A stretch of 64,000 nt of DNA from an uncultured bacterium (GCA_938003925.1 CALKWQ010000023.1:243799-307798), one strand, 5' to 3'. Counted from the first letter of the stretch, positions 43,710 through 64,000 are shown. The notes: generated by a model from the letters alone, not told the origin. Made by a program: numbers and translations.

Positions 43710-43717
43710 CTAACTTT

Positions 43718-44173: not shown

Positions 44174-44176
44174 ATT

Positions 44177-45556: not shown

Positions 45557-45570
45557 TAATTTGTTTCTAC

Positions 45571-47231: not shown

Positions 47232-47233
47232 TT

Positions 47234-47617: not shown

Positions 47618-47635
47618 GACTATTTACAATGCTTT

Positions 47636-47667
47636 AAAAACGCCTGCAATCCAGGCGTTTTTTGTTT
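47636..47667 (+). terminator. rho-independent terminator closing the pilus locus
   Basis: Stem cgcctg / caggcg followed by T6. Confidence 0.7.
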
Positions 47668-47720
47668 TCAATGTTGTGGCCAGAAAAAATCGTTTAAAGC
47701 TTTCCTTGATTTAGAAAAAA

Positions 47721-47729
47721 TGATATAAT
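47721..47729 (+). promoter_or_regulatory. extended -10 promoter (TGaTATAAT) of giant gene 1
   Basis: TG at 47721-47722 and TATAAT at 47724-47729, 51 nt upstream of the GTG start. Confidence 0.5.
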
Positions 47730-47780
47730 TTTATTATAAAATCAGTCTCCTTTTAGGACCTGTTTATTCATATTCTGCTT

Positions 47781-50700
47781 GTGCAGAGAAAATTAATTGC
47801 GACAAAAAAAATTAGCTGGGCACCCAAGCTGGGGTTGCTGTTTTTTGTTATGGGTGGGCTGTTTTTCGTTCTCGGTATTCAGCCGTCTCAAGCCGCTTTA
47901 GCTAATTTATACAACAAAGCTACAAGTAGCACTTTAGCGGCTTATGAGTGGAATAATCTGTTGTCCGATTTTGTTACTAAGAATAATGGCGGCGATAGAT
48001 TGGATGGCTACTTCAGTATTAATACGGCGACTTCTTCCACCTATGCTTTAGATATCAATGGTGCTTTGCGCGCCACCAACTTAACAGGCGCTCTGTCTGG
48101 CACCCTGAACGCTGGTAATGTTTCTACCGGTGCCTTCGGTTTAAATACCGGTGGCGGTAATTATAATTTTCCTGCCAATATCGGTATCGGTATCGGTACC
48201 GCCACTCCGGCCTCTATCATCACTCTCGCCAACAATCGCTGGGTGTCTGCTTTAAATAGCACCGGCACTGGTTATGTGAACATGTTTAGAGTGAACGCTA
48301 ACGATGAGATTGAAGTGGGGGGAGCTTTAAACATCGGTCAATTCCAGTTTGCTGCCGATAGCGGTTTTAACACTTTTGTAGATATGCCGGTGACTAATGC
48401 TCCGGCGGCTGGCACTATCATGGGCTACACCATGAAGGTGGATGGGGACAATATTTTAAATGTCTATTCTGAAGCTAATGGTAGCGGCGGTATTCAAAAT
48501 CGTCGCATTGGTATTGGTACTAGTACCCCTGCTTTTACTCTGGATGTTAATGGCATTATCAATGCTTCCGCTCTTTATGTTAATGGCGCTCCTTATATCG
48601 GTAGTCAGTGGACTACTAACGGCACGAGCGTGTATTACAACACTGGTAATGTCGGTATCGGCACTACTACTCCTATCGCCACTTTAGACGTGAACGGGTT
48701 GATTAAGATGCGGACTGCTTTGATTACCGCCAATGAGGATGTAATTAACAAAGGTTATTTGGACTCAGCTTTAGCCAGTACCACCGCCCAAATTATTACC
48801 CAGGTTGCCACCAGTAGTTTCTGGCAGGGCAGCATGGCGGGCAGTATTTATAATGCTAACTCTGGTAGCGTTGGGATTGGGACGACGAATCCGAGTGGGA
48901 AGCTGCATATTACTGATGCTAGTAATACAACGAGGTATGCGTCCTTTAGTTCTACTGGTTTGTTAACCATCAATTTTCAAGATGGTACTGGTAGCATTCC
49001 TTTTCTAACCTTGCAGAATCCTTATGGCAATATGGGTGTTTCTTCGCACATATTGTTTAAGTCTGGTTACGCTGGCACTACTTACGTTGATTCTGGTCGT
49101 ATCACCTTGGGTCATGAAGTTGATTGGACTAGCACGGCTGCCACTAGGGACTCTTATCTCGCTCTTTTTACCTCTCTAGACGGTGCGTTGGGAGAAAAGA
49201 TGAGGATTACGAGCGCTGGTAATGTGGGGATTGGAGTAACTAACCCTATTCATAAGCTTCAAATCAGTTCCGGTAATTTATCTTTAAGTGATGGTAATTT
49301 TATTGATTGGGGTAACGGTAGCACAAGAATTCTTTCAATAACCTCTGTTCCAAATAACAGAATTATGGGATTTGAGACTTGGAACAGCACAACTGGTAGA
49401 GCGGAAAGGATGAGAATAGATGGAGTTGGCAACGTCGGCATCGGGACTACCAACCCCACCGCCAAACTATACGTCAATGGTACTTCCATATTTAATGATA
49501 TTGCCACCTTCACTCAACCAGTAGTAGTGGCCACCCCTATTTTAGGTCCTCATGCTGCTACTAAGAGTTACGTAGATTCTACTATTGCTTCTGCCACTTC
49601 CAGCATTACTCTATGGGGCGGAACAATTGGGGGTAATGTTTGGAATTTAAATTCTGGTAACGTTGGGATTGGGACGACTAGCCCTGGTATTAGCAAATTA
49701 AGAATTGAACATAACGCCTGGACGACATATGGATTAACTTTAAGCAATACCTATACCGGCGGTCGGTCTTGGAATTTGGGCGATGGATTAGCGGCCATGG
49801 GCATGTTTTCTATCAGAGATGAAACCGCTGGTCAGGTCAGGTTGACTATTAATGGCAATGGTAACGTCGGCATTGGTACTACCACTCCTGGCACTAAATT
49901 GACGGTGGTTGGATCAGGTAATTACAGTATTGATGCTGGTAATTATCGCGTCGGCAATGTTGCTACGCCGGTAGCTGCTTTGGATGCGGTTAATAAATCA
50001 TATCTTGATTCCGCGGTTGGCACCGCACAAACCGCCTTTTGGAACATTAACGGTTCTAACCTCTACGCCTCTTCAACCAGTTGGAATGTCGGAGTCGGAA
50101 CCACCGCCCCAGATTCACGCCTTCATATTGTAGGCACCGGCCAACCTCTTTTGCATATTCAAAACTCTAATGGAACCGATGGAATAACCGCCGGAATTTT
50201 ATTTGGAGTTACGAATGCGACTGATTATCAGCAAGCAGGTATATTTTTTGAAAGACTTGGTGGTTCAGCTGAGGGCAGTTTGCATTTCGCCACTAAAAAT
50301 GGTGGCGCTGGTAACGCAACTAAGGCAAATGCAAGGATGACAATAAACGCTAGTGGAAATGTTGGGATTGGAACAACCAATCCAGATGCCAAGCTACAAG
50401 TACAAGGAACTTTAAAGTTACAGAATGTTGTTTCTTCTTCACCTGATACTAATTTTAGAAGAATGATTAATGTTGCTTCGTATAATGGTGGAGGCACTTA
50501 TCGAACTGGTATATTAACTGTTAAATTACCTTCTCCTTTAGCTCATTCAATGGCTAAAATCAAAATTAGTGGTTGGAGTTATGGTCAGGCTTGGGATGTG
50601 ATTGTGTCTGGTTATTTAAATACTACTCAATGGACGCAAGTCGGAGGCACAGTGGTTACAGGTAATCCTCCTTTTAATACCGATCAAATTCGCTTAGTAG

Positions 50701-53700
50701 CTGATAGTGCTTCAGATACTTTCTATATCTTATTAGGCGATGCGGCAACTACTTATGGATATTATGCTAGTATCGGTGTTGATGTAGATAGTATTTACTC
50801 AAACAATCTGCCTTCTACTGGTTGGGATATTTATATTGCTGCTAGTGATCCGTCTTTTGATTATGTAACTACTCCCGCCTCGTCTTTGTATGGTAGTCAT
50901 GGTGCAGATATTAATAACGGTAATGTTTATATTAATGATGCCGTTATTACCTCTGGCACTCCTAAGGCTGCTATTACCAAAGAATACCTCACCTCTTCCT
51001 TAGAAGCTTTTAATTCAGAAACTAATCTATGGAAGTTAAATGGTTCTAACCTCTACGCTTCTACTACTACTTGGAATGTGGGTATTGGTACTAGTAGCCC
51101 AGCCACTAAATTAGATGTCTGGGGTAATATTTATATTAATTCGGCTACACATAATAACACTACTACTCTAGCCTTTGCTACTAATGGTAGTCCCTATCAC
51201 CAGATATTTTCTAATCGGCAAACCGGCGAATTCTCTATAAGGGCTGGCGTTGGCGGCAGTGGCCACTATCTAACCTTTGGTTCAGGTGATGGTTCGGAAA
51301 AAATGAGAATTACTACTACTGGCAACGTCGGGATTGGCACTAACAATCCGGCTGGCTTATTGGAACTGTATAAGGCTGGTTCTAATGCTAACTTAAAGCT
51401 CTATGCTTTTAGCAGCTCTGCTTATGATTCCCAATTGCAATTTTCTGCCAACACTAATGCTGCCGTGGAATATAGCGCTGGTCTAGATAATAATGATAAT
51501 AATTTTAAGATTTACTCTGGTGAAAATGTAAGAGGGACTAATGAGTTCGTAATTAATCCATCGGGCAACGTCGGCATCGGCACCACCAACCCCACCGCCA
51601 AACTATACGTCAATGGTACTTCCATATTTAATGATATTGCCACCTTCACTCAACCAGTAGTAGTGGCCACCCCTATTTTAGGTCCTCATGCTGCTACTAA
51701 GAGTTACGTAGATTCTACTATTGCTTCTGCCACTTCCAGCATTACTCTATGGGGCGGAACAATTGGGGGTAATGTTTGGAATTTAAATTCTGGTAACGTT
51801 GGGATTGGGACGACTAATGCCCTAGAAAAGCTAGATTTAAGAGACGGTAATTTGTATATTTCTGATTCAGATTTGGCAACGAACAGTGCTGGTGGTGCTA
51901 TAAAATTTGGTAGACCCGATGGTTATGCCTCTAATTGGTTGGCATCAATAGGCTCTTATACTACTACTGGCTACGATCGCATAGGTTTAACTTTTAATAC
52001 TTCTTTCGGGACTTCTCAAGAGCGAATAAGAATTACGCCAGAAGGTAATGTTGGGATTGGAACAACAAATCCGACAACGAAGTTGCATATAGAAAATGGA
52101 GTGATAAGGGCAAACAATATAGTAGCCGTTGGCAGTAGTGCCGCCCACCCTACGGGAATTGGATCTTATATAGAACTTTATATGTTGGGTGAAGTGGGAA
52201 GAATTTTGCCTTATGATGGTGCTAGTTATAAAGATTTGGCTATTGGTGATTGGAATGGAGGTAATCCGAATATAATGTTGAAAGTGGGCGGTAATGTCGG
52301 TATTGGAAATGGGTCTCCTTCTAATAAATTGAGTGTTGCGGGTAGTGCAGACTTTTCCGGTAACGTCGGTATCGGGACTACCAACCCCACCGCCAAACTA
52401 TACGTCAATGGTACTTCCATATTTAATGATATTGCCACCTTCACTCAACCAGTAGTAGTGGCCACCCCTATTTTAGGTCCTCATGCCGCTACTAAGAGTT
52501 ACGTAGATTCCACTATTGCTTCCGCCACTTCCAGTATCGCCACTCTCTGGGGTGGAACCGTTGGAGGACATATCTGGAATTTAAATTCAGGTAATGTTGG
52601 TATTGGTGTGGCCAGTCCGGAATCATTATTTGAAGTAGAGCGATCTGCTACTGGGACCGTGGCTACCTTTGACGTTAATACGACTAATAGAGCGACTGTC
52701 CAGTTGAGCGTATTTGATAATTATGCTCAGCTGCAAAGTTACGGTCGCGGGTCTTCTAGCGGTTACTTGTCTATTAATCCTCTAGGTAATAATGTCGGTA
52801 TCGGGACTACTAACCCGGGTTCTTACAAGCTAAACGTTAATGGCAGCACTAATATCAGTGGCAGTTTAAATGTCACTGGCACAACTACCGCCGGAGCCTT
52901 TGTTGGCCCAGTGGTAGGCACAATTAATGCTCGCAACGTTTCTTCCGGGGCTTTTGGCGCTGATGCTGGCGGAGGTAATTTTAGCTTTCCGGCTAATGTT
53001 GGAATTGGGACGACGAATCCTGGTTCTAGGCTGACTATTAATGGGGTTGGGGCTTCTAGTACACCTTTAACCTTGTTGCAGGTGTTTAATATGATTCCTT
53101 ATGCTACAGGCAATGGTCTTGGCGCAGCTCGAATTGAAATTGGTCACGGCACTTTGCATGGTTATATAGAAAGTGCTGCTAATTCTGAGAATAATAGCGC
53201 TGATGGTTATATGGCTTTTGGTACCCGTCGTCCTACTAATAATGTGACTGAGGCAATGAGGATAGATCAATCTGGTAATATCGGAATTGGGACCACTACT
53301 CCGGATGCAAAATTATCCGTTAATGGCGGAGCTACTTTTAATACTGGCGCCGGACTCGCAATTGGTAATGTTGGCAGTTATAATAAATTAATAACTTATT
53401 CTGCTGGTCCCGTTTTTCGTATTTTTACTGGTGGTAGTTACGGTAGTTTTGGCGCTGGCAGTGCTTCTATCGGAGCTTCGTATGCTGCCATATCTTCGCC
53501 TGCGGGCGGGTTAATTGTAGAGGGTAACGTCGGTATCGGCACTTCTAATCCTGGCGCATATCGCTTGAAGGTGGCAGGAGATATGGCTGTTACTGGCACC
53601 TTACAGACTCAGACTGGTTCCGACTTTGCGGAAGAATTTAGTGTAGATTCAGTAATTTTACCAGGTACGGTGGTGGTGATGGCTGATAACGGGCACAAAT

Positions 53701-54005
53701 CGGTTCGAGTCTCAACTGCAGCCTATGATCGCAAGGTTGTAGGTATTGTGTCCGATAATCCCTCTATTATTGCTGGTAGAATTGAAAGCGGACAAAAGGT
53801 TGTGGTGGCTATGATGGGGGTAGTTTCAGTTAATGTCACTAGTGCTAATGGCAAAATTGAAAAGGGGGATTTATTGACTTCTTCTAACCTGCCTGGCTAT
53901 GCCATGAAGGTGACTGAGTTTGCGCCGGGAACTGTAATTGGCAAAGCCTTGGAAGATCTAGTGGGAAAGAAAGGGAAGATTAAGGTGTTGGTAAATTTGC
54001 AGTAA
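47781..54005 (+). CDS. giant (2074 aa) secreted fibre/adhesin-like protein built from about 20 GNVGIGTTxPxxKLxVxG modules
   Basis: GTG start and an N-terminal signal anchor. The G-N-V-G-I-G-T-T-x-P...KL.V.G motif recurs about 20 times and is also seen in phage tail-fibre-like proteins. A distinct C-terminal roughly 150-aa domain follows (GSDFAEEF...VVGIVSDNPSII...GDLLTSS..PGYAMK...GTVIGKALE). Confidence 0.85.
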   Translation: MQRKLIATKKISWAPKLGLLFFVMGGLFFVLGIQPSQAALANLYNKATSSTLAAYEWNNLLSDFVTKNNGGDRLDGYFSINTATSSTYALDINGALRATNLTGALSGTLNAGNVSTGAFGLNTGGGNYNFPANIGIGIGTATPASIITLANNRWVSALNSTGTGYVNMFRVNANDEIEVGGALNIGQFQFAADSGFNTFVDMPVTNAPAAGTIMGYTMKVDGDNILNVYSEANGSGGIQNRRIGIGTSTPAFTLDVNGIINASALYVNGAPYIGSQWTTNGTSVYYNTGNVGIGTTTPIATLDVNGLIKMRTALITANEDVINKGYLDSALASTTAQIITQVATSSFWQGSMAGSIYNANSGSVGIGTTNPSGKLHITDASNTTRYASFSSTGLLTINFQDGTGSIPFLTLQNPYGNMGVSSHILFKSGYAGTTYVDSGRITLGHEVDWTSTAATRDSYLALFTSLDGALGEKMRITSAGNVGIGVTNPIHKLQISSGNLSLSDGNFIDWGNGSTRILSITSVPNNRIMGFETWNSTTGRAERMRIDGVGNVGIGTTNPTAKLYVNGTSIFNDIATFTQPVVVATPILGPHAATKSYVDSTIASATSSITLWGGTIGGNVWNLNSGNVGIGTTSPGISKLRIEHNAWTTYGLTLSNTYTGGRSWNLGDGLAAMGMFSIRDETAGQVRLTINGNGNVGIGTTTPGTKLTVVGSGNYSIDAGNYRVGNVATPVAALDAVNKSYLDSAVGTAQTAFWNINGSNLYASSTSWNVGVGTTAPDSRLHIVGTGQPLLHIQNSNGTDGITAGILFGVTNATDYQQAGIFFERLGGSAEGSLHFATKNGGAGNATKANARMTINASGNVGIGTTNPDAKLQVQGTLKLQNVVSSSPDTNFRRMINVASYNGGGTYRTGILTVKLPSPLAHSMAKIKISGWSYGQAWDVIVSGYLNTTQWTQVGGTVVTGNPPFNTDQIRLVADSASDTFYILLGDAATTYGYYASIGVDVDSIYSNNLPSTGWDIYIAASDPSFDYVTTPASSLYGSHGADINNGNVYINDAVITSGTPKAAITKEYLTSSLEAFNSETNLWKLNGSNLYASTTTWNVGIGTSSPATKLDVWGNIYINSATHNNTTTLAFATNGSPYHQIFSNRQTGEFSIRAGVGGSGHYLTFGSGDGSEKMRITTTGNVGIGTNNPAGLLELYKAGSNANLKLYAFSSSAYDSQLQFSANTNAAVEYSAGLDNNDNNFKIYSGENVRGTNEFVINPSGNVGIGTTNPTAKLYVNGTSIFNDIATFTQPVVVATPILGPHAATKSYVDSTIASATSSITLWGGTIGGNVWNLNSGNVGIGTTNALEKLDLRDGNLYISDSDLATNSAGGAIKFGRPDGYASNWLASIGSYTTTGYDRIGLTFNTSFGTSQERIRITPEGNVGIGTTNPTTKLHIENGVIRANNIVAVGSSAAHPTGIGSYIELYMLGEVGRILPYDGASYKDLAIGDWNGGNPNIMLKVGGNVGIGNGSPSNKLSVAGSADFSGNVGIGTTNPTAKLYVNGTSIFNDIATFTQPVVVATPILGPHAATKSYVDSTIASATSSIATLWGGTVGGHIWNLNSGNVGIGVASPESLFEVERSATGTVATFDVNTTNRATVQLSVFDNYAQLQSYGRGSSSGYLSINPLGNNVGIGTTNPGSYKLNVNGSTNISGSLNVTGTTTAGAFVGPVVGTINARNVSSGAFGADAGGGNFSFPANVGIGTTNPGSRLTINGVGASSTPLTLLQVFNMIPYATGNGLGAARIEIGHGTLHGYIESAANSENNSADGYMAFGTRRPTNNVTEAMRIDQSGNIGIGTTTPDAKLSVNGGATFNTGAGLAIGNVGSYNKLITYSAGPVFRIFTGGSYGSFGAGSASIGASYAAISSPAGGLIVEGNVGIGTSNPGAYRLKVAGDMAVTGTLQTQTGSDFAEEFSVDSVILPGTVVVMADNGHKSVRVSTAAYDRKVVGIVSDNPSIIAGRIESGQKVVVAMMGVVSVNVTSANGKIEKGDLLTSSNLPGYAMKVTEFAPGTVIGKALEDLVGKKGKIKVLVNLQ
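49428..49679 (+). repeat. 252-bp cassette, copy A (encodes GNVGIGTTNPTAKLYVNGTSIFNDIATFTQPVVVATPILGPHAATKSYVDSTIASATSSITLWGGTIGGNVWNLNSGNVGIGTT)
   Basis: It differs from copy B at only two synonymous sites (49445 and 49448). 49449-49679 reads identical to 51585-51815. Confidence 0.9.
51564..51815 (+). repeat. 252-bp cassette, copy B
   Basis: See copy A. The flanks of A and B are unrelated at the DNA level. Confidence 0.9.
52359..52607 (+). repeat. cassette copy C (mosaic)
   Basis: The 5' roughly 140 bp are near-identical to A and B. The 3' roughly 110 bp carry substitutions (catgccgct, gattccact, an extra Ala codon, ctctggggtggaac) that match copy D in the second giant gene. Confidence 0.8.
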
Positions 54006-54014
54006 ATTCTTTAC

Positions 54015-54260
54015 AAATGAATATCCCTGTGTCCGCTTCTACCACTCTTTAGAGGCATTAACAGTCAAGGGGTCCGCGCCAACAAAAACCGCTAATGCCG
54101 GTGGTGTCGGATGACTTGATTTTATCCATCACTAGTCATCCCCCGAAGGGGCGACTAGCAAGAGAAAATCCCAGCGATCAAGCTGGGACTCATTGTCAAG
54201 AAAACAGCGTGCGGCCGTCAGGTACGTACGTTCTAGGAGCGGTCACAAGGATATTCATTT
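54015..54260 (+). ncRNA. candidate RT-associated structured non-coding RNA (retron msr/msd-like or DRT-type template RNA)
   Basis: 54015-54038 pairs with 54237-54260: 22 of 24 positions, including aaatgaatatcc.tgtg against cacaaggatattcattt. The enclosed roughly 200 nt are visibly more GC-rich than the flanks. They contain hairpins 54054-54060/54093-54099, 54132-54158 (ctagtc..cccc gaa gggg..gactag) and 54169-54188 (tcccagc/gctggga). There is no ORF. A 6-bp hairpin plus T5 (54267-54287) lies just before the RT ATG. Confidence 0.55.
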
Positions 54261-54289
54261 TTTAGTAGGGGCTTAATTGCCCTTTTTGT

Positions 54290-55498
54290 ATGTATCAACA
54301 GATTATTGCCCTTAAAAACTTGGAAGCAGCTTATTTGAAAATCGCCGGTGATATGGAATTAGATGGGCGCTCCGGTCGTTATCGGGGCTGGGATAGCTGG
54401 AAAATGGCTGATGTAGAAGTGAGAACTTCAGCTTTGTTGCGGTTAATTAGGGCGGAATTACGCGATTTAAAACCCATTGCTCCGGCTGTACTATTTAAAA
54501 TTCCTAAAAAGAGTAATCCTCAGAAACTCAGAGAAATTTATATCTATAATTGGTCGGAGCGCATCAAGGCCCAGGCTATTTATCAGGTGGTCGAGCCGGT
54601 TTTTGATGCTTATTTTTCCCCTTATCTCTTTTCCTATCGCTCGTCTCACGCAAGTTATTTTGCAGCGCGTAGCGCCGTCAGGCATTACCGTAGATATTGG
54701 CACCGAGATTCAGTGTTGATTGGTGATTTGTCTGACTATTCTAATTATATCCAGCATGACCAGTTAAAAGAGAAAATCAAGAAATTGCAACTAGACAAGA
54801 AAGTTGAAGAGCTGTTATTCTTATTCATCGGCAATGAAGTTATTCGTGATGGCGCGATTGTTAAGCCGTCAGTTGGCTTGGTTCAGGGTGTGCCGTTGAT
54901 TGCTCTGTTTAATAATCTGTATCTAGATGATTTTGATAAATACGTTGGGCAGCGGGCTGATTTTTATCGCCGCGTAGGCGATGATTTGGCTATCTTTGAC
55001 CGTTTGTCTGCACGTTTATTGCCTCTGCGTGATCGCTTAGAGCAGGAGGCTAAAGTCTTAGGTTTGAAAATTAACCAAGACAAGACTGGTTTGCGTTTAG
55101 CCTCTGAGCCCTTTAATTTTCTAGGTTATCATTTTCAAGCTGGACAAGTGTCCTTACCGCCCAATTTCGTTAAGGCCTTAGTTAATAAATGGCGGCAACA
55201 ATTTTCTTACTACGGCAGTCAGCGCCTTGTCCTTAAGAGTCGCATGTTAAAAAACTCTTTACGCCAAGACAGGCAGAATTTACGCGAACAATTGCGGCAG
55301 TTATCTCAGCAGAAGAAGTTGGTCACAGATGAAGCGCAGTTGCGCCGTTTATCTGAAGCTTTTTTTCGGGTTTTGACTCGTTATTTCTTCAAAGATTATT
55401 CACCTCGTCATCGTCGTCTTTTGGCCGGAAAACTTGAAAAGTTAGGTTTAAAATCGGTATACAAACATTTTTTATCAGCTCGTTATGACTCAGATTAG
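54290..55498 (+). CDS. reverse transcriptase, unclassified (not DGR-type; retron, group-II-like or UG-like)
   Basis: RT motifs in order: FKIPKKSNPQKLREIY (1/2), FSYRSSHAS (3), LIGDLSDYSNYIQHD (4/A), GLVQGVPLIALFNNLYLDDFD (5/B), FYRRVGDDLAIF (C; VGDD instead of YADD), GLKINQDKT (6), FNFLGYHF (7). These are followed by a roughly 120-aa basic helical tail. Confidence 0.85.
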   Translation: MYQQIIALKNLEAAYLKIAGDMELDGRSGRYRGWDSWKMADVEVRTSALLRLIRAELRDLKPIAPAVLFKIPKKSNPQKLREIYIYNWSERIKAQAIYQVVEPVFDAYFSPYLFSYRSSHASYFAARSAVRHYRRYWHRDSVLIGDLSDYSNYIQHDQLKEKIKKLQLDKKVEELLFLFIGNEVIRDGAIVKPSVGLVQGVPLIALFNNLYLDDFDKYVGQRADFYRRVGDDLAIFDRLSARLLPLRDRLEQEAKVLGLKINQDKTGLRLASEPFNFLGYHFQAGQVSLPPNFVKALVNKWRQQFSYYGSQRLVLKSRMLKNSLRQDRQNLREQLRQLSQQKKLVTDEAQLRRLSEAFFRVLTRYFFKDYSPRHRRLLAGKLEKLGLKSVYKHFLSARYDSD

Positions 55499-57188
55499 GG
55501 ACAATGTTAAATTATTGCGTCAACGCCGGGCACAAAGATTGGCTAATAAGCCACTGTGGCCCAGTCAAGAGCACTTGGTCTATTTGCGTAATTTTTTTAG
55601 GCGGCAGCATCGCTTGTTGTCGATTAGTTTGATGGCCTTGTTACTGCAGGGACTATTTGAAATCGCTCTGATTGTTATTAGCCACCGGTATCTAAAGAGT
55701 TTTTCTGGTTACGAATTAGCCGTTAGTCGTCGTGCCTTATTTATCTTATTGGTAGTAATGGCGACCGTGTATCTGTTGGCAGCCTTTGCAGCGATTAAGG
55801 GGGAGCGCACCTTGATTGTGCGATTGATTAATGACTTACGTGCCCGTTGGTTTAAGTTGTTTTTATATAAGCGGCGCGAGGAAAATAATTTGGAAAATAA
55901 GGGTATGTTGCTGGCTAAAATCTCTTATCATCTGCCTTTACTCAGCACTGGTCTGTCTAATTCGTTGGCCGGAGTCGTGCGTTGGCTGATGTTTGTCCTG
56001 ATTTTGTTGTTCTTAGCTTTTGTTTTTACCTATAAGCTTTTGTGGTTTGTAGCTGGGGCGGTATTAGTTGGTCTATTGGTTGGAGCGGCTGCTTTTTGGA
56101 TTTCCTATAATTACGTTACCAAAGAAACTACTTTCTATTCCCAAATCATCAGGTTGGTGGATTTTAACTTATCCGACTGGTCGTTTGTAAAACAATATCG
56201 ACGTGAACGGGCGGTAGTGAAGGAGTTTGATCAGTTGGTAGAATTAGATTCATACTTTCGAGTACGCCGCGATCTCTGGCTGCGTTTCAGTATCAGTTTA
56301 GTGTTTGTGCTCTTAGTTTTTATCAGCTTTATGGTCGGTTCTTGGCATAGTCGCTTGGAATACTTTTTCGGAGCCGCTAGCTTGGACGCCAGATTCGTCT
56401 TGGTAATTGCTCTAGTCTATTTTTCTCGTCTACTCTATGAAAGTTTGCGGGTAGGTCTGTATTCCGTACCCTTGCTTTTAGGTCTGAAGCTGGCTATACC
56501 TGATTTTTTGCCGCGGAAACTAGGGGCGGGGAAACTAATTACAGCACCAGCGCTGGTTTTCAGCGCAGCTAAAGCCAAGCTCTTTGCTCGTGATCATAAA
56601 TATCGTCGTTTCAATTTCGAATTTGTGCCAGGCGGGCGCTATGTTATCAGTGGCCCCTCCCGTTCTGGTCGTAGTTCTTTGGCTAAGTTACTGGCCGGTC
56701 AAGCTGTTTATGGCCGTCGCGCCTGGTTAATTAAGGTGGGACGTAGGCGCTATTTCTATAACGAATTTTTTGATAAATACGCGGGCACCTATTATTTTGA
56801 TCCCCACTTTAACAGTGCTCGTTCTTTGTTGGAGGTAGTGGTGGGCAAAGAGAAGACGGCTATTACCCCAGCTGATTTAGCTACCGCTTCTACTTTAGTT
56901 AATGAACATCAGGAGCTAAGGGCCATCTTTTTTGAACGCGAAGACTGGCGTTATCCAGCTAATAGGTTTTGCAATAATCGTAAAAGCGTCTTTTTAGTGC
57001 AGCTGCTTTACTGCTTAATCAACAAGCCCTATTTAGTAATGATAGATAATGAGTGGCTTGAGACTGAAGATGCCGATATTAGCGCTTGGTTGCGCCTATT
57101 GGATCAGTTATTACCGAAGAGCGCTGTAGTGGCCTTCACTTCTACTAATAGAAAATTATTTACTAACCAACATCATCATGAAATTTAA
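55485..57188 (+). CDS. ABC-exporter-like protein (6-TM domain plus degenerate nucleotide-binding domain)
   Basis: It overlaps the RT stop by 14 nt. The N-terminal roughly 340 aa have the ABC_membrane-type six-helix layout. In the C-terminal NBD, Walker A is GPSRSGRSS (Lys to Arg), the signature is FCNNR in place of LSGGQ, and Walker B is YLVMIDNE. Confidence 0.65.
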   Translation: MTQIRDNVKLLRQRRAQRLANKPLWPSQEHLVYLRNFFRRQHRLLSISLMALLLQGLFEIALIVISHRYLKSFSGYELAVSRRALFILLVVMATVYLLAAFAAIKGERTLIVRLINDLRARWFKLFLYKRREENNLENKGMLLAKISYHLPLLSTGLSNSLAGVVRWLMFVLILLFLAFVFTYKLLWFVAGAVLVGLLVGAAAFWISYNYVTKETTFYSQIIRLVDFNLSDWSFVKQYRRERAVVKEFDQLVELDSYFRVRRDLWLRFSISLVFVLLVFISFMVGSWHSRLEYFFGAASLDARFVLVIALVYFSRLLYESLRVGLYSVPLLLGLKLAIPDFLPRKLGAGKLITAPALVFSAAKAKLFARDHKYRRFNFEFVPGGRYVISGPSRSGRSSLAKLLAGQAVYGRRAWLIKVGRRRYFYNEFFDKYAGTYYFDPHFNSARSLLEVVVGKEKTAITPADLATASTLVNEHQELRAIFFEREDWRYPANRFCNNRKSVFLVQLLYCLINKPYLVMIDNEWLETEDADISAWLRLLDQLLPKSAVVAFTSTNRKLFTNQHHHEI

Positions 57189-58419
57189 GTTTAAACATTG
57201 GCGCTGGCTGTGGGCGCCCCTAGTAATTATCTTGGGTCTATTATTACTGGCCTTAGTGGCAAGACAGGGAGGGGCGTTAGTAGAAAAATGGTTGCTTATC
57301 AAAAGTCGGCCAGCTGTCAGCGTTACTACGGTCTTACCCGTGTCAGCCGAATTGCTATTTAATCACGAGCCGGGAGTGGAGATTTTTTCGGAACGGATTG
57401 TTACTGAAATTGGCCAGGCGCAGCAGAGCTTAGAAATTGCGATGTACGCTTTTTCTTCGGTTAAGCTGAAAGAAGCGGTTTATGCTGCTCAGCGGCGCGG
57501 GGTAAAAGTAACTATTATCACAGATTTTCGTAAACGAGAAAATCACGAGGCTTTTTTTGCAGATGCGGTTAGAGACATCAAGCGCTTAGAGGCTGGGGCT
57601 GAAACCGCCAGTAAGACTATTTTGATGCACCATAAGTTTGCTTTAATTGATCGAGGCACCGCCAATCAGAAATTACTATTTGGCGCCTATAATTGGACGG
57701 ATTTACAAGAAAAGTATGATCCCAGTTTCTTGATGGTGAGCACTAGTTCGGAGTTGGTTGCTAGTTTCGGTCGAGAATTTGATCGTTTATTGGCCGGCCA
57801 AGCCGGAACTCAGAAGCTGCGTGACCAGGCTTATCATCCCTGGGATTTAGAGCTTAAGGCCGCTGGCTATACTTCGGAAGTCTGGTTTAGTCCGGGGCGA
57901 GAGGGCGATGGCATTAAGACCAGGCTTTCTTCTTTGATTAATAGCGCTCAACAAGAGATCCAAATTATGATTTGGGACTTTACCGACAAGGAATTAGCAG
58001 TGGATTTAATTCGTCGTGCCCGCCAAGGCGTAAAAGTGACCATCATCACTGATACCTGGAATTTTTACAACCAAAATTCAGTATTCTTATACTTAGCCGA
58101 AGCTAAACAGCGTTATCAGTTAGATAATTTTGAATTAATTGTCGATAAAGTAGGCGGTGAAAAGACCATTGCCGCTGTCAACGCTCCTGATTTAGAGGCT
58201 GACTTTGATCCCTTCTTGCATTTTCACGTTTTGATTGTAGATGGGCAAAAAGTTTTGTTTGGCACCAACAATTGGAGTCGTGCCGGCTCTTATTTCAATG
58301 ACGAGTCAATGATGATTAGTGAAGACCCGGCTGTGGCTGCTGCTTTTCAGGAGGCTTTCAGGTATCAGTATCAACACAATACTACGCCATTAGTGGAGGC
58401 TGGGGTAATTGTTGATTAA
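57178..58419 (+). CDS. membrane-anchored phospholipase-D/HKD-superfamily protein (nuclease-like, two HKD domains)
   Basis: It overlaps the upstream stop by 11 nt. N-terminal TM helix. HKD 1 is HHKFALID...GAYN. HKD 2 is HFHVLIVD...GTNN, with the Lys replaced by His. Confidence 0.8.
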   Translation: MKFKFKHWRWLWAPLVIILGLLLLALVARQGGALVEKWLLIKSRPAVSVTTVLPVSAELLFNHEPGVEIFSERIVTEIGQAQQSLEIAMYAFSSVKLKEAVYAAQRRGVKVTIITDFRKRENHEAFFADAVRDIKRLEAGAETASKTILMHHKFALIDRGTANQKLLFGAYNWTDLQEKYDPSFLMVSTSSELVASFGREFDRLLAGQAGTQKLRDQAYHPWDLELKAAGYTSEVWFSPGREGDGIKTRLSSLINSAQQEIQIMIWDFTDKELAVDLIRRARQGVKVTIITDTWNFYNQNSVFLYLAEAKQRYQLDNFELIVDKVGGEKTIAAVNAPDLEADFDPFLHFHVLIVDGQKVLFGTNNWSRAGSYFNDESMMISEDPAVAAAFQEAFRYQYQHNTTPLVEAGVIVD

Positions 58420-58466
58420 ATGGGAAAATGCTATAATTAAATTAATTAAAAATTAAATTTAAAAGT

Positions 58467-59057
58467 ATGTCTGAACAAGCAAAAAGTTCTCTTTCTAGCC
58501 ATCGCCGTGTCTGGCTATTTTCGGCCCTTATTTTTTTCCTGCTAGCTTTAGCCGCCGCTGGCCCCTTAGTTTTTAAAGCTTTCGCTGACGCCAGTTCTGC
58601 TCATGAGCAGGTTATTCAAGCCCGCAATGCTGCCATCAGTGAAGCTATCCTAAATAATGATTATAATGCCTGGGATTCTTTAGTTCAGGATCAAACACTT
58701 AAGCAACAGATTAACTCTAGTAATTTCGAGGCCTTTGCTGAAGCCTATCGTCTTTTAGAGAAGGGCATGATTACCGAGGCAGAGTTACTGAAACGGCAGG
58801 TAGGTATTAAGGAGGAGATGAATCAAAACGCTGTAGTGAGCAGCATGATTGGCCAGGCAATCGTCAATAAAGACTATAACCTGTGGCGCCAAGCCGTGGG
58901 CAATGATTATGCTCAGGGTGTAGTTACTGCTGGTAATTTTGATAAATATGCCAGCTTTCTCCAAGATGTGGAAAAAGGCAGGTTAAATCGCGCCGTTCGC
59001 TATCAGTATGATTTGGGGGTAAAGCAGAAAATGGATTACAGTTCTAGTCGCGAGTAG
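58467..59057 (+). CDS. membrane-anchored hypothetical protein with an internal duplication
   Basis: TGcTATAAT at 58429-58437 and one TM helix. Repeated AI(L/V)N(N/K)DYN.W ... NF(E/D)..A ... EKG segments. Confidence 0.5.
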   Translation: MSEQAKSSLSSHRRVWLFSALIFFLLALAAAGPLVFKAFADASSAHEQVIQARNAAISEAILNNDYNAWDSLVQDQTLKQQINSSNFEAFAEAYRLLEKGMITEAELLKRQVGIKEEMNQNAVVSSMIGQAIVNKDYNLWRQAVGNDYAQGVVTAGNFDKYASFLQDVEKGRLNRAVRYQYDLGVKQKMDYSSSRE

Positions 59058-59069
59058 CGCTAATTTATT

Positions 59070-59252
59070 ATGATGAAATATTTAAAGGTAACCTTCGCCT
59101 TTCTGGTGGTAGCAATTTTTTTACTCTCTGCTTATATGGTCATCTTCGACTCTAGAAATCGGGAGCTGGCTATAGCTAAGAGTCAGCGTTTCAGTGCTGG
59201 TGGCGCTGGGCGTTTCCTGAGTTTGGGTGATTACAGTTCCAGCCATGATTAA
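59070..59252 (+). CDS. small single-TM protein (60 aa)
   Basis: ORF with one hydrophobic helix, tightly spaced within the run. Confidence 0.35.
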   Translation: MMKYLKVTFAFLVVAIFLLSAYMVIFDSRNRELAIAKSQRFSAGGAGRFLSLGDYSSSHD

Positions 59253-59264
59253 TTTTTGCAATTT

Positions 59265-59825
59265 ATGCTTAACAAAAAAATAATTATTGCCGTCTTGTCA
59301 GTGGTGGTGGTGATGTTAGTAGTAGCTTTGTGGTGGCGCAATGGTGACAAGGAGATTAAGGTGACTGAAGTTAAGGTAACGCCGGAGCAAGTCACTAACA
59401 CCACTCCCTTGCCAGGCGGCAATACCATCAATGAAGAGCAAATTGTAGTGACTGAGGCTGGTACGCCGGTGCAGGTAAATGTGATGCCCAATAATCCCGA
59501 AGCCCCTAAAGCGGTAGTGGTATCAACTAAGAAACTGCCGCAGAGCGCAGTGCAAATCAAGGTGGGTGATAGTAAGTTTGAGCCCTCAACCTTTACCGTG
59601 CAGCCTGGAGCGCCGGTGTCTTTAGCTTTTTCTTCGGTTGATAAAAAAGTTCATGTCATTACTTTTTCTGACCCCTCTTTGGCGGCTCTGTCTTTCGGGG
59701 TGGGGGCCAATCAGACTAAGGCTATGACTTTCAATGCTCCTAGCCAGGCGGGTGAGTATGAGTTCCACTGTGATGTTCCCGGTCATCGAGCAGCTGGAGA
59801 AGTGGGGGTCATGATTGTGCAATAA
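59265..59825 (+). CDS. membrane-anchored cupredoxin (type-1 copper-like) domain protein
   Basis: The first ATG is at 59265. TM anchor, then a C-terminal beta domain with VHVITF...EYEFHCDVPGHRAAGEVGVMIV, giving a His ... Cys-x4-His ... Met ligand pattern. Confidence 0.65.
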   Translation: MLNKKIIIAVLSVVVVMLVVALWWRNGDKEIKVTEVKVTPEQVTNTTPLPGGNTINEEQIVVTEAGTPVQVNVMPNNPEAPKAVVVSTKKLPQSAVQIKVGDSKFEPSTFTVQPGAPVSLAFSSVDKKVHVITFSDPSLAALSFGVGANQTKAMTFNAPSQAGEYEFHCDVPGHRAAGEVGVMIVQ

Positions 59826-59846
59826 TTGTTAACTTATTATATCTCT

Positions 59847-60470
59847 ATGTCTAAATTTCTAACTAAAAATCTACCCGGTAACCAGAAAGCCATCCTCCTT
59901 GCTTTATTAGGTGTAGCTATTGTCTTAGTGGTCCTAGTGGCGATAGATTTGTTTCGTAAACCGGTGGCGGAAACACCGATAATAGAGGGGGCCAATGTTC
60001 CCACTGAGGCTTTACCCGATCAGGAAGATTATCAAGATGTCGTAGCTATGCCTCAAGTGCAGAAAGATGAATTTAAGGAAGAAGTACCAGTAGATATTGT
60101 AGTGCCGGAGATCGACACTCAATTAACCGAGGAACAAAAAAAAGAAATAGCCCTACCGACAGTGACAGTGGCAGCGGCTCCTGGTGTTGAAGCTAAGTTC
60201 CGTAGCTTCCAGATTAAAGCGGAGGGTGGAGCGTTTGTGCCGACCAAAGTTATTGCTAATGCCGGCGATACCGTTCACATTGATTTCACGGCTGTAGATG
60301 GTAATTATGACATTGTATTTCCGAGCTACAACATGATGCAGACAGCTAGCCAGGGTCAGACAAAAATCTTAGAGTTCCAAGCCCTGCAATCCGGCAGCTT
60401 TACCTACTACTGTTCCAGCTGTGGCGGTCCTGAGAGCGGGCCTAAAGGCAATATTATTATTGTGGAATAA
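59847..60470 (+). CDS. membrane-anchored cupredoxin-fold-like protein lacking the full copper ligand set
   Basis: ATG at 59847 and a TM anchor. The C-terminal domain parallels the upstream gene (GDTVHIDFT...FTYYCSSCGGPESGPKGNIIIVE) but has no His/Met after the Cys pair. Confidence 0.5.
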   Translation: MSKFLTKNLPGNQKAILLALLGVAIVLVVLVAIDLFRKPVAETPIIEGANVPTEALPDQEDYQDVVAMPQVQKDEFKEEVPVDIVVPEIDTQLTEEQKKEIALPTVTVAAAPGVEAKFRSFQIKAEGGAFVPTKVIANAGDTVHIDFTAVDGNYDIVFPSYNMMQTASQGQTKILEFQALQSGSFTYYCSSCGGPESGPKGNIIIVE

Positions 60471-60489
60471 AAAATTATTGTTAGTTCTA

Positions 60490-60520
60490 AAAACGCCTAC
60501 TACATAGTGGGCGTTTTTGT
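60490..60520 (+). terminator. rho-independent terminator
   Basis: Stem aacgcctac / gtgggcgtt followed by a T-run. Confidence 0.6.
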
Positions 60521-60612
60521 GTTTTCAGACCCAGTTTATGCTGAGTGTTTCTTGGCTGTAGCCAGCGTTTAAAAGTATTATTTAGAACCTTGAAAAAACA
60601 GGCAAAAAATTA

Positions 60613-60641
60613 TTGCTAGGATTCTAAAAATGAGGTATAAT
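60613..60641 (+). promoter_or_regulatory. sigma70-type promoter of giant gene 2
   Basis: TTGCTA (60613-60618), a 17-nt spacer, then TATAAT (60636-60641), 15 nt before the ATG. Confidence 0.55.
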
Positions 60642-60656
60642 TAGGGCATAGTAAGT

Positions 60657-63600
60657 ATGCTTAAATCGTCCCTAAAATTAACTGCGAAAACGCTGGTTTT
60701 ATTGTTAATTCCGGCGGCGTTTTTATTTATTGAGACTCATTCTACTGAGGCGGCAGTTGGTTTATCAGTGGGCAACACTGGTTTAAATTTATTACAGGCA
60801 GAGAATTTATTTTATGGTAACGTCGGTTCTACCAGCCATGCTTCCAGTAGTTTCTTATTATTCCAAAACAATAGCGTGGATAGATTGAGAATTGATATCT
60901 TGGGCAACTTAACCACGTCCGGAACCATTACTGCTGGTGCTTTTTCTGGTCCAATCACCGGAGGTTCTATCTCGGCCGCTAATGTCTCCGCTGGTAATTT
61001 TGGATCCAATGTTGGTAATGGTAATTTCAGTTTTCCTGGTAATGTGGGAGTGGGCACGACAAATCCTTTGGGTCTTTTGCATATTTATTCAACAGCTTCT
61101 TCATCTCAGGCTTTATTCATTGCTAATAATGGTTATGTTGGAATTGGTAGAAATAATCCAGGTTTTAGATTGGATGTACAGGGCGATACTTACATTCAAG
61201 GGTCCTTATATAATTGGGGAAATGCATCTATACAGACCTTAGCTTTAGGTTACGGTGCAGCATATCCGGCAATTTTAACAACTCAAACCGCCAATGAAGA
61301 TTTAACTATTGACCCTGCCGGCGTAGGTAACATTATTATGCAAGGTAACGTCGGGATAGGGACGACGAATCCATTAGCAACTTTAGATATTTTGCATCCC
61401 AATTCTGCCGCCGGGGGCATAAGACTTCAATCTTCATTAGATGATTTAACTCTAAAGAGGGGCAGAATAAAAACAGGACATTATAATAATAGCGAAGAGC
61501 CGGTGACGTTACTTATTACCAGTAATTCAAGCGGCGAGAATTTAATTGCTCTTGGTGGCAGCAGTACTGTTGAAAATTCTGCAAATACAATTTCATTTTA
61601 TACAGGCGAAACAGCGGCAACTCTAAACGGTACGGAGCGAATGAGAATAAATTCTGCCGGCAACGTCGGCATCGGCACCACCAATCCTACTGCTAAACTA
61701 TATGTTAATGGTACTTCCATATTTAACGATATTGCTACCTTCACTCAACCAGTAGTAGTCTCCGCTCCTATTTTGGGTCCTCATGCCGCTACTAAGAGTT
61801 ACGTAGATTCCACTATTGCTTCTGCCACTTCCAGTATTGCCACTCTCTGGGGTGGAACAATTGGAGGAAATGTTTGGAATTTAAATTCTGGTAATGTTGG
61901 GATTGGTAATAATAATCCACTAGCCAAATTGCAGATTAATAATCAGGGAGCATTTAATGCGGTCATTCCTGGACCTTCGGCTTATTACGGTCTCCATTTT
62001 AATGGCCAGACTACTGCAGATTATGCCACGGGTATTACTTGGAATGGCGGCACCACGGGGACTCAGGCTGGTTTATATGTCCAAGGCTCAGGTGCTTATG
62101 GTACCAAAATGTATTTTGCTACAACTCAGAGTTATGCTACCGGCGCTCAAACCAGAATGATGATTGATCATAGTGGTAACGTCGGCATTGGCACCACTAC
62201 TCCGGGCACCAGACTAACTGTAATTGGTTCAGGTAATTATAGTATTGATGCTGGCAATTATCGTATCGGCAATATTGCTGCACCGGTATCAGCTAATGAT
62301 GCTGTTAATTTATCTTATTTGCAATCGGCTGTCGGTACTGCTCAAAACGCCTACTGGAATCTATCTGGCAGTACTTTGTCGGCCTCATCTACCACTTGGA
62401 ATGTGCGCGTTGGCACCACCACCGCGGGCACTGACAAAATTGGAGTTGCCGGTGGCCGTATTTCCACTTTAGATACCAGCGACATCTATGCTGGTGGTCA
62501 GGTTAATTCAGCTGGTACTGGCGCTAACGCTTTTGCTGGTCGGTTAGCGGTTGGGCAAATTGCAGTGGCCACACCCAAGTTTTTTGTAAATGGTGGCGCG
62601 GCTATCGGTACGAATTATTCTACCGCTAACATCGCGACTGGCACCATGGCTTTAGAGACCAATTTAGGTATCGGTTTAACTAATCCCACTGCTCGCTTAC
62701 ATGTCTTTGACCCCACGACGACGACGGGCTACAACACCTATTTGTATAATAATGGCATCACCTCAGGCACAATGCTGGGTTTAGTCCAAGCTTCTTCTAC
62801 CTTTAACGGTATTGGCTTGTATATGAATTTTCAATCCGGCACTGGCACTAGCACTGCTAATTTTGCCGATTTTAGGATTAATAATTCTCAGCGTTTTGCT
62901 GTTAATTATCGTGGTGGCATTACCAGCACCTATGCTAATGATGCCGATAATGTTAACTTAAATAGTTTCACGCTTACTAGTGGTAATGCCAGTGCAGCTT
63001 CATATAATGCTTTGGCAGTTAGCAGTCCGAGTCGGCTCATAGTTTCGCAAACTTCCGCCACTGAAGATGAGTTGTTTGATAATAATTACGAGGGCTTTAA
63101 ATTTAACTCCGGTACTTATAACAACATGGGTGGCTTCTATGTTCGCATGAGGAGGGGCACTACTACCCCAGTTAATGCGGGTGGAGCTTATTTCCGCGCC
63201 CATATTTACACTGATAACGGTGGTCAGCCTGGCACCAATGTCACTAATAGCCCTTCTATTTATGTTGCGCGCTTAGGTACCACTTATGCTGATTATTATT
63301 TTCCTTTAAGCGTTGCGCTGACCGCCAATACTAACTATTGGATTTTGCTTTATAAAGTTGGTGGCTTTAACGCTGCCGACCAAGTGTATTTTTATACTCA
63401 TCCTACTTCCGGCAGCGCTGAATGGGCTTACGGCAACGGGACATCCTGGTCAGTTGACCCAACTCGTCGCGGTTATTTTAGAGTGTATTCGCGTAGCGCT
63501 AATGGTATTACCGCCACTTCTGATGTTAACTATGGTGTTTATGGTAGCTCTACTTTTGGCACTGGAGTCAGGGGCGCCTCTAATGCCGGTATTGGTGTGT

Positions 63601-64000
63601 ACGGCGTCAGTACCCATGGTTATGGCGGCCAGTTTGATAGTGGCTTAGGTTTGTATAATGTAGTTAATGGCCCATCAGCTTCAGCGATTTATAATTTTAC
63701 TGCCCTACAGAGAACTGGGCAGCGTTTCTTAGATTATACCTATAACTTGGGTTATACCGGTGATATTTTTAATATTAACTCCGGATCTAATGTTTATACC
63801 GTTCACTATCTTTACTATAACGGTTCTGCTTTCACTGACTATACCAACGCTGCTCGTAATTTCGGCGGCTCTGCCTATCCATTATTAGCCGATAGCGATG
63901 ATTATTTTTACTTTGGTCGTACTTCCGCTACCACAGCTTATCGTAATCTCTTCTTTGATATTTCCAATACACCCAATCTCTCGGGTGTTACTTGGGAATA
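60657..64000 (+). CDS. second giant fibre/adhesin-like protein, N-terminal 1114 aa (open to the window end); absent from the ORF track
   Basis: ATG 60657 gives MLKSSLKLTAKTLVLLLIPAAFLFIETHSTEA (signal). I translated several stretches in this frame (60657-61400, 63000-63400, 63960-64000) and found no stop. It has the same GNVGIGTTNP modules, carries cassette copy D, and has a segment (62175-62425) about 80 percent identical to 49861-50105. All listed small ORFs in this region are in other frames. Confidence 0.8.
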   Translation, partial: MLKSSLKLTAKTLVLLLIPAAFLFIETHSTEAAVGLSVGNTGLNLLQAENLFYGNVGSTSHASSSFLLFQNNSVDRLRIDILGNLTTSGTITAGAFSGPITGGSISAANVSAGNFGSNVGNGNFSFPGNVGVGTTNPLGLLHIYSTASSSQALFIANNGYVGIGRNNPGFRLDVQGDTYIQGSLYNWGNASIQTLALGYGAAYPAILTTQTANEDLTIDPAGVGNIIMQGNVGIGTTNPLATLDILHPNSAAGGIRLQSSLDDLTLKRGRIKTGHYNNSEEPVTLLITSNSSGENLIALGGSSTVENSANTISFYTGETAATLNGTERMRINSAGNVGIGTTNPTAKLYVNGTSIFNDIATFTQPVVVSAPILGPHAATKSYVDSTIASATSSIATLWGGTIGGNVWNLNSGNVGIGNNNPLAKLQINNQGAFNAVIPGPSAYYGLHFNGQTTADYATGITWNGGTTGTQAGLYVQGSGAYGTKMYFATTQSYATGAQTRMMIDHSGNVGIGTTTPGTRLTVIGSGNYSIDAGNYRIGNIAAPVSANDAVNLSYLQSAVGTAQNAYWNLSGSTLSASSTTWNVRVGTTTAGTDKIGVAGGRISTLDTSDIYAGGQVNSAGTGANAFAGRLAVGQIAVATPKFFVNGGAAIGTNYSTANIATGTMALETNLGIGLTNPTARLHVFDPTTTTGYNTYLYNNGITSGTMLGLVQASSTFNGIGLYMNFQSGTGTSTANFADFRINNSQRFAVNYRGGITSTYANDADNVNLNSFTLTSGNASAASYNALAVSSPSRLIVSQTSATEDELFDNNYEGFKFNSGTYNNMGGFYVRMRRGTTTPVNAGGAYFRAHIYTDNGGQPGTNVTNSPSIYVARLGTTYADYYFPLSVALTANTNYWILLYKVGGFNAADQVYFYTHPTSGSAEWAYGNGTSWSVDPTRRGYFRVYSRSANGITATSDVNYGVYGSSTFGTGVRGASNAGIGVYGVSTHGYGGQFDSGLGLYNVVNGPSASAIYNFTALQRTGQRFLDYTYNLGYTGDIFNINSGSNVYTVHYLYYNGSAFTDYTNAARNFGGSAYPLLADSDDYFYFGRTSATTAYRNLFFDISNTPNLSGVTWE
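61659..61907 (+). repeat. cassette copy D, in giant gene 2
   Basis: Same module, with mostly synonymous substitutions in the 5' half. The 3' half shares the copy C variants. Confidence 0.8.

Follow-up and report, generated by a model that had tools for sequence, protein, structure and literature searches.

Four copies of a 250-bp cassette are shared within and between two giant fibre genes of an uncultured bacterium, and these copies have recombined recently. They lie in a window of 64,000 nucleotides (GCA_938003925.1, CALKWQ010000023.1:243799-307798; the window here means this whole stretch, and W the genome from which it comes), and we consider it likely that the copies are kept alike by non-reciprocal homologous recombination of fibre modules, both within giant gene 1 and between giant genes 1 and 2. 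What is observed are the repeats, the mosaic structure of one of them, the clustering of copies within genomes, the positions of the junctions and the differences in gene size between relatives. The window belongs to a single SPAdes contig (NODE_2_length_481252, about 21x coverage) of the short-read metagenome assembly ERZ724100. The sequence past the window end was obtained via giant gene 3, and 12.7 kb beyond the window are also covered, in extended window coordinates or in those of the locus denoted L001. The giant genes and the cassette copies are located as follows.

47781-54005, plus strand: giant gene 1, an open reading frame (ORF) of 2074 amino acids (aa) in which about 20 modules lie between a signal or transmembrane segment at the N-terminus and a conserved domain at the C-terminus
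49428-49680, plus strand: cassette copy A, in gene 1 (repeat search and blastn)
51564-51816, plus strand: cassette copy B, in gene 1 (repeat search and blastn)
52359-52607, plus strand: cassette copy C, the mosaic copy, in gene 1; its 5' part is of the A/B type, and its 3' part has the variant set of D together with 9 private changes
52476-52486, plus strand: crossover interval in C, the 11 nt common to the exact run of A and C (which ends at 52486) and the exact run of C and D (which starts at 52476)
60657-64000, plus strand: giant gene 2, which runs off the window and ends at extended coordinate 67553; 2298 aa on the source contig
61659-61907, plus strand: cassette copy D, in giant gene 2
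Extended 67588-72954 (L001 10001-15367): giant gene 3, 1788 aa, which follows gene 2 beyond the window

The three adjacent giant proteins are strings of modules, where every module opens with the motif GNVGIGTT(N/T)P, of which 33 strict instances occur across 48645-72184. Two classes of module alternate: "stalk" modules, which are short (about 75 aa) and have a Trp and the pattern P..(H/D)A(A/V)(T/N)K.Y(V/L)DS, and "body" modules, which are longer and in many cases have ERMRI at their end. One complete module of the stalk or neck class (P..HAATKSYVDS), with a length of 76 aa in copies A and B and of 77 aa in C and D, plus the first eight codons of the following module, makes up the 250-bp cassette exactly. 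All four copies, which a first-pass annotation of the window had located, were recovered by repeat search and blastn, and each is in frame within an intact full-length ORF; no extra copy was found in the rest of the window or the 12.7 kb past it. The identical copies are not in tandem, since between them are 0.8-9 kb of unrelated modules, and they are distributed over two genes.

Copies A and B share a block of 253 bp with two mismatches, at 49445 and 49448, both of which are synonymous (Gly GGG/GGC and Thr ACT/ACC), and directly outside this block their flanks cannot be aligned. The near-identity, the two synonymous differences and the unrelated flanks were all in the first-pass annotation, but the exact run given there as 231 bp is in fact 232 bp (49449-49680). 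The gapped identity of C and D to A and B is 87-91% (blastn); an ungapped estimate of 70-74% was rejected as an artefact of a 3-bp indel.

Copy C is a mosaic, as the same annotation had proposed. It is identical to A over 116 bp (49440-49555 in A, 52371-52486 in C), after which it has 9 substitutions and an extra Ala codon that are otherwise found only in D (alignment columns 129-249), and the variant strings listed in the annotation are present. When A, C and D are compared as a triplet, the 15 sites where C agrees with A and not with D all fall at column 117 or before, while the 9 sites and the indel where C agrees with D and not with A all fall at column 129 or after. From the count of informative sites, the chance of so perfect a split is about 1 in 10^6. 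The same switch is seen in the synonymous divergence (dS), which for A and C is 0.33 over the whole cassette, but rises from 0.06 in the 5' half to 0.80 in the 3' half; for C and D it is 0.43 over the whole, 0.69 in the 5' half and 0.22 in the 3' half. The corresponding values for A and B are 0.03, 0.06 and 0.00.

It follows from the identity at synonymous sites, with a dS for A and B of 0.03, that selection at the protein level alone cannot explain the likeness of the copies. A wider form of this idea, where the four copies would owe their likeness not to recombination but to purifying selection on some essential element, protein or nucleic acid, would agree with the very low ratio of non-synonymous to synonymous divergence among them (dN/dS about 0.03-0.07) and with the wide distribution of the module and the conservation of its protein sequence. 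We give it hardly any credence, since the synonymous sites are identical not only between A and B but also in the 5' half of C, since between other modules of this class the synonymous divergence is saturated, since relatives have orthologous copies with many synonymous differences, and since the cassette has no Rfam match.

Other modules of these genes have a background identity of 70-85%, and by this measure the family of A to D is exceptional. Three further stalk-class segments serve for comparison.

48645-48863, plus strand: an old, diverged stalk-class module, with about 41% aa identity to the cassette (tblastn, module list)
49859-50108, plus strand: gene 1 copy of a second stalk-module family, 74% identical to the gene 2 copy and 77% to the gene 3 copy
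62174-62423, plus strand: gene 2 copy of the same family, 74% identical to the gene 1 copy

The second family had been noted as a pair of segments about 80% identical; the value of 74% is lower and there is a third copy, in gene 3. Judged by these identities, the second family is ordinary old paralogy.

To place the cassettes among those of relatives, we use the syntenic loci L002-L006, which were found by exact-protein look-ups and by a scan anchored on the neighbouring reverse transcriptase (RT) gene.

L002, GCA_030696105.1: pilus operon genes about 67-74% identical to W in nucleotide sequence
L003, SRR17148716: collinear with W over 7.5 kb at 89% nucleotide identity
L004 and L005, ERZ724089 and ERZ724088: flanks about 70% identical to W in nucleotide sequence
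L006, CAZTUJ010000001.1: about 83% identical to L005 in nucleotide sequence

All five retain the gene order as far as each contig extends. In their single-copy flanks, L003 and L005 have an identity to W of about 89% and about 70%, respectively. An RT-alignment scan of the genome collection gave two loci, one of which (L007) duplicates L004, and an RT-alignment scan of metagenomes gave one short contig and one distant RT, with no added strains of the W lineage; the exact cassette pattern had no match in JGI metagenomes. The record of L006 is titled "uncultured Gammaproteobacteria bacterium", yet the locus is syntenic to the Patescibacteria-type L005, and the label is probably a binning or naming error.

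The copies in W are 87-99% identical to each other but only 76-85% identical to those in L003, in spite of the 89% identity of the flanks. A neighbour-joining tree built from 17 cassette copies unites A, B, C and D, with 98% bootstrap support, in a clade that leaves out both L003 copies, and in the same tree the two gene-1 copies of L005 cluster with 85% support. D has the same position in gene 2, about 1 kb from its start, as the cassette in gene 2a of L003, but every quarter of D is 87-92% identical to the gene-1 copies of W against 77-83% for this positional orthologue. The residues ATPILGPHAATKSYVDSTIASATSSI are common to all copies in W and differ from GAPVLNTHAATKNYVDSQISSSTGAI, which is common to all copies in L005 and L006, in both genes. 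In this second clade the similarity also varies along the cassette: copies g1b and g2b of L005 are 82%, 99% and 78% identical over successive thirds, and copies g2a and g2b of L006 are 93%, 85% and 72% identical. These identities, together with the abrupt change of dS along C, support, as regards recent events, the earlier proposal of ongoing homologous recombination or gene conversion among the modules. The pattern extends beyond the syntenic loci, since a search with protein fragments for similar pairs within 120 giant homologues found near-identical pairs (non-overlapping segments of at least 60 aa, at least 95% identical) in 37 of them and a pair with 100% identity in 14.

The giant genes also differ in size between relatives. 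The orthologues of gene 1 have 2074, 1460 or 1917 aa and those of gene 2 have 2298 or 1570 aa, while L003 has a gene 2a of 773 aa and, adjacent to it, an extra gene of 2134 aa. That the fibres can be reshuffled or resized, as had been suggested from the window alone, thus agrees with the differences in length and module content between orthologous giant genes.

The region 7632-16405 of L003 has four fibre genes rather than three. Its 773-aa gene 2a is a shortened gene 2 whose two termini are of the same types, and the last 512 nt of the extra 2134-aa gene are 87% identical to the end of gene 2 in W. That gene 2 of W should be a fusion of genes 2a and 2b of L003 across the cassette was considered and rejected, as the sequence 3' of D is unlike that 3' of the g2b cassette.

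Part of the pattern would arise also if one module had been copied to new positions by illegitimate or unequal recombination at the motifs, with neither conversion nor lasting concerted evolution. Such duplication and insertion would give A and B unrelated flanks and a shared block that ends exactly at motifs, and it would agree with the variable gene lengths among relatives and with the many homologues that hold identical module pairs. What it leaves unexplained is the switch point inside C, the resemblance of D to the gene-1 copies of W in a position that it shares with the g2a cassette of L003, and, in the second clade, the tract of 99% identity embedded in copies that are otherwise 78-82% identical. 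Because of these three observations exchange between existing copies is needed, and to duplication as the only process we give a small, though not negligible, weight.

Where the exchanges end can be seen from the breakpoints between the close pairs W/L003 and L005/L006. In both pairs collinear homology is confined to the first 400 bp or so and the last 500 bp or so of each giant gene, and the middles have only scattered matches at the level of modules. Homology blocks start at offsets of 0, 0, -1 and 0 nt from the start of a motif and end at +29, +28 and +23 nt, with one more at +46 nt, and in all, 7 of 10 endpoints have an offset between -1 and +29 nt, where 6-9% would be expected (P about 2e-5). 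Two motifs exemplify this.

53523-53552, plus strand: motif GNVGIGTSNP, where the collinear 89% homology with L003 starts (offset 0)
61038-61067, plus strand: motif GNVGVGTTNP, where collinear homology with L003 stops (offset +29)

At the protein level, gene 2 of W and gene 2a of L003 are 94% identical over 137 aa and unrelated right after the motif; they are then 87% identical across the cassette module, and again unrelated past the next motif. The block shared by A and B likewise extends from offset 0 of one motif to about +24 to +29 in the one that follows.

We infer the following pathway for the recombination. A and B would be the result of a very recent event, and C is a patchwork of a 5' half of the A/B type and a 3' half related to D. 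Two types of event would contribute: in the first, whole modules would be replaced, inserted or lost with junctions inside the sequence of about 30 nt that codes for the motif, and in the second, conversion between copies with existing similarity would give tracts with ends at any point inside them. In the long run, paralogous modules would then evolve in concert, and the middles of the fibres would be restructured while both ends stay fixed, so that close relatives come to have fibres that differ in length and in their modules.

The junctions may be favoured mechanistically by the motif, as a short stretch of DNA homology, or by selection for junctions that are in frame and foldable. The codons of the motif are unusual in comparison with the rest of the same genes, with AAC at 59% against 24%, GTC at 55% against 16% and GGG at 42% against 8%, and they come in two flavours, C-ending before stalk modules and T- or G-ending before body modules. 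Common descent of the module types would explain this codon usage as well as would DNA-level conservation for the sake of recombination. A stronger proposal is that the motif is a dedicated recombination signal, which drives frequent, quasi-programmed shuffling of modules among the three fibre genes within a population. The unusual, position-specific codon usage of the motif and the breakpoints that centre on it are compatible with this proposal, but we regard it as unlikely. If it were true, episymbiotic Patescibacteria would have a cassette-based variation of the length or specificity of host-attachment fibres, similar to antigenic variation and to host-range switching in phages. Cassettes for antigenic variation of the pilE/pilS type were considered separately and rejected, as no silent, promoterless donor copy was found in the window or the 12.7 kb that follow it, and all copies are in frame in intact ORFs.

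The proposal of recombination between modules must also be confronted with the quality of the assembly, which could have produced the pattern by collapse of repeats or by chimeric joining. The window comes from one SPAdes contig, the exact repeat of 232 bp is longer than the usual k-mer sizes, and the removal of bubbles can erase small differences between repeats. An origin of the whole pattern in the assembly is nevertheless very unlikely: each copy has unique, in-frame flanks within an intact ORF of 2074 aa, direct repeats give a unique path through the graph, and the differences that make C and D mosaic are real sequence differences and not collapses. Furthermore, the samples ERZ724088 and ERZ724089 are identical for all five cassette copies of a related species, and the near-identical module pairs in 37 of 120 homologues come from many assemblies.

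Several points weigh against our interpretation. All four copies are known from one short-read assembly, where collapsed bubbles could have inflated the identity of A and B. Conversion of an older module and duplication with insertion of a module look alike. L003 is without most of gene 1, and a replacement of the L003 cassettes from a foreign donor could also account for the distance of D from its orthologue. That junctions coincide with module boundaries could be due to selection for proteins able to fold instead of a mechanistic preference for the motif, and 2 of the 10 breakpoints, namely both ends of one indel in gene 3, are off the motif. The motif copies, with their two flavours, are only about 70-80% identical in DNA, which makes them short and imperfect substrates for exchange of the RecA type. 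As to the fibres themselves, an AlphaFold2 model of the cassette monomer is uninformative with regard to a trimeric state (predicted local distance difference test score, pLDDT, of 46).

The giant proteins have N-terminal, signal-like hydrophobic segments and are predicted to be secreted fibres, the repeat units of which are homologous to those of phage tail fibres and of the mosaic adhesive trimer (MAT) fibres of Bdellovibrio. Gene 1 matches PHROG tail-fibre families (E = 2e-65 and 7e-52), and a phmmer search against the PDB gives the MAT fibre 8OND (Bd2133) with E = 1e-7 as well as 8OML and 8OJN. A profile of the cassette finds 8OJN (2.5e-7) and 8OND (9e-7), and the centre of the cassette matches the necks of phage tailspikes and hyaluronidases. 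The fibres are predicted to form trimers, with a putative role in attachment to a host or a surface. Pfam finds neither the chaperone domain S74 nor any other domain in gene 1, and no S74 domain in the genes of this window, but many homologues carry it (PF13884). What gene 1 has at its end is a domain of another kind.

53592-54002, plus strand: C-terminal all-beta domain of gene 1, 137 aa (homologue alignment, structure model)

These last 137 aa recur with 63-77% identity at the very C-terminus (...IKVLVNLQ) of 21 giant homologues that are otherwise diverse. The model of the domain (pLDDT 86) resembles trimeric phage decoration proteins of the beta-tulip type and the C-terminal autochaperone of phi29 gp12, with template modelling (TM) scores of 0.55-0.67. 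The match to phi29 gp12 begins at DFAEEF, and this start hints at a possible autocleavage after GS. Gene 3 has a Cys-rich N-terminal region and gene 2 a Cys-rich terminal domain (...ACCK).

MAT fibres are trimeric, phage-like surface fibres, and it is their mosaic composition that gives them their name (Caulton et al. 2024, PMC10769870). The fibres described here, which are predicted to be secreted, share with them great length, relation to phage tail fibres, several paralogues per genome and a mosaic build, and the repeat units are similar in sequence to those of Bd2133 and Bd1334, including the motif ERMRI...GNxGxGTxxPxxxLxV. Some homologues in Patescibacteria carry the S74 chaperone domain, as do many members of the MAT family. 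Where MAT fibres have one conserved end and a diversified tip, however, the proteins of close relatives have here both ends conserved and the middle restructured; they are two to three times longer, and instead of S74, for which the genes of this window gave no match, gene 1 has the beta-rich C-terminal domain of the phage decoration or gp12-autochaperone type. The organism also differs from Bdellovibrio in that it is probably a Patescibacterium and not a predator, and its fibre genes follow a type IV pilus operon.

A second likeness is to the adhesin genes g37 and g38 of T-even phages, which, according to the account in Trojet et al. (2011, PMC3157838, citing Tetart et al. 1996, 1998), swap segments by recombination at conserved motifs. 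In both cases glycine-rich motifs, short and highly conserved, delimit the variable segments, exchanges fall in or near these motifs, and duplication of a small domain alters the fibre. The T-even exchanges were seen in experimental phage crosses, whereas exchange within one cellular chromosome, between paralogues and between strains, is inferred here; the motif GNVGIGTTNP and the fold of the modules differ as well.

It is textbook knowledge that repeats in bacterial and fungal surface proteins evolve in concert by gene conversion or unequal crossover. As in those proteins, paralogues at the present locus are closer within than between genomes, tracts are mosaic and the number of repeats varies; unlike those repeats, the modules are not in tandem. 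Shuffling of modules at conserved motifs is thus already known from phage adhesins, and the locus is a clear new example of it in a little-studied lineage, with an unusually sharp mapping of the junctions. Patescibacteria are generally regarded as living in attachment to other microbes, and little is understood of the way in which they recognize their hosts. The present results indicate that giant fibre genes of Patescibacteria evolve by exchange of whole modules at a conserved motif and that close relatives differ already in the length and composition of their fibres. If the fibres take part in attachment, they would be candidate determinants of host range, and the conserved ends and the motif would be practical anchors by which the variable middle could be amplified and compared across populations.

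An RT gene and its neighbours lie between giant genes 1 and 2, as the first-pass annotation had pointed out with the two recombining genes in mind.

54006-54289: structured RNA region, about 280 nt of non-coding sequence upstream of the RT gene, conserved in five genomes
54290-55498: RT, with a QG...VGDD core
55485-57188: membrane protein of 567 aa, ABC-membrane-like
57178-58419: two-domain PLD nuclease

This position of the operon has no mechanistic meaning, since the operon is not a diversity-generating retroelement (DGR) and the trio of RT, membrane protein and PLD nuclease occurs away from giant genes in other Patescibacteria. The idea to be weighed is that the neighbouring RT copies or mutates the cassettes, in a DGR-like manner or by retro-conversion. 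DGRs are common in Patescibacteria, and as in a DGR the RT gene adjoins the gene of a surface protein of ligand-binding type. An RT gene with structured RNA upstream of it, between the two giant genes, is in line with such a role, and so is the conservation of this order in W, L003, L004/L005, L006 and L008. Against it speaks the spectrum of changes, where the differences between copies are mostly C/T at third codon positions and not adenine-specific. A scan of 54006-60656 with adenine as wildcard against the whole extended locus gave no match of the template/variable kind, and around the RT there is no repeat pair with A-only mismatches. Short-word blastn of the RNA region against the fibre genes found only chance 10-14-mers, and no Avd-like gene is evident among the RT-adjacent genes that were scanned. 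The RT, with its QG...VGDD core, probably lacks the DGR-type motif. A DGR was rejected on the base spectrum, the RT motif and the wildcard scan taken together, and we hold diversification by a retroelement of any kind to be highly unlikely.

The operon is best described as a separate three-gene system and not as the cause of the cassette pattern, because there is neither a template/variable repeat, nor an A-specific change, nor any similarity between the RNA and the fibre genes, and because the trio is found also in other places. The membrane protein and the PLD nuclease come after the RT in each of the 8 loci examined. In L008, where the RT is 57% identical, the trio is beside giant genes, but in L009 and L010, where the RT is 41% identical, its neighbourhoods are unrelated. 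The protein collection has many RT homologues, with 37-97% identity, and those with a name come from Patescibacteria. The RT matches UG26-like, generic RT and group II-like models, all of them only partially; the PADLOC model RT_UG26, for instance, gives E = 7e-32 over model positions 49-295 of 398 only. UG26 has been described with a Vsr-like partner, an inconclusive prediction of a role in defence and no PLD partner, and a combination of RT and PLD was not found among the systems of that UG/Abi survey (PMC9226505). The predicted fold of the RNA region is closed by a long stem, and compensatory changes among five genomes are present in 21 of its 71 predicted pairs; an Rfam scan of 47000-64000 gave only a sub-threshold chance match and no family for this region. 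The trio may be an undescribed system that is retron-like or similar to the defence-associated reverse transcriptases (DRT).

W is probably a genome of the Patescibacteria, a group of ultrasmall bacteria, because the named homologues of the giant protein and of the RT come from Falkowbacteria, Parcubacteria, Saccharibacteria and Magasanikbacteria. Directly upstream of gene 1, at 35801-47617, is a type IV pilus-like operon with PilM, a PilB-type ATPase, PilC and five pilin-like genes, in which FemAB and YbeY genes are interleaved. L002 and L005 have the same order from pilus operon to gene 1, and L006 has the downstream part of the operon (about 70% nucleotide identity to W), which suggests that pilus and fibres may be functionally linked. 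On the 3' side of gene 1 the order is RT, the 567-aa membrane protein, PLD nuclease, a small gene, two cupredoxins, gene 2, gene 3 and a cupredoxin.

L001 15511-16248: cupredoxin after the gene 3 region

Cupredoxin genes thus recur near the fibre genes, with two ahead of gene 2 and one behind gene 3. The remainder of the window is ordinary chromosome, with RecG, photolyase, MatE, malic enzyme and threonyl-tRNA synthetase. Near the start of the window, at 4510-6399, is an ATPase of the VirB4/TraG type. The stretch 12000-20000 has a low GC content, 33-37% against about 43%, and its ORFs are without Pfam matches; adjoining it, at 19980-22103, is a protein of 707 aa with three Laminin_G_3 or lectin-like domains.

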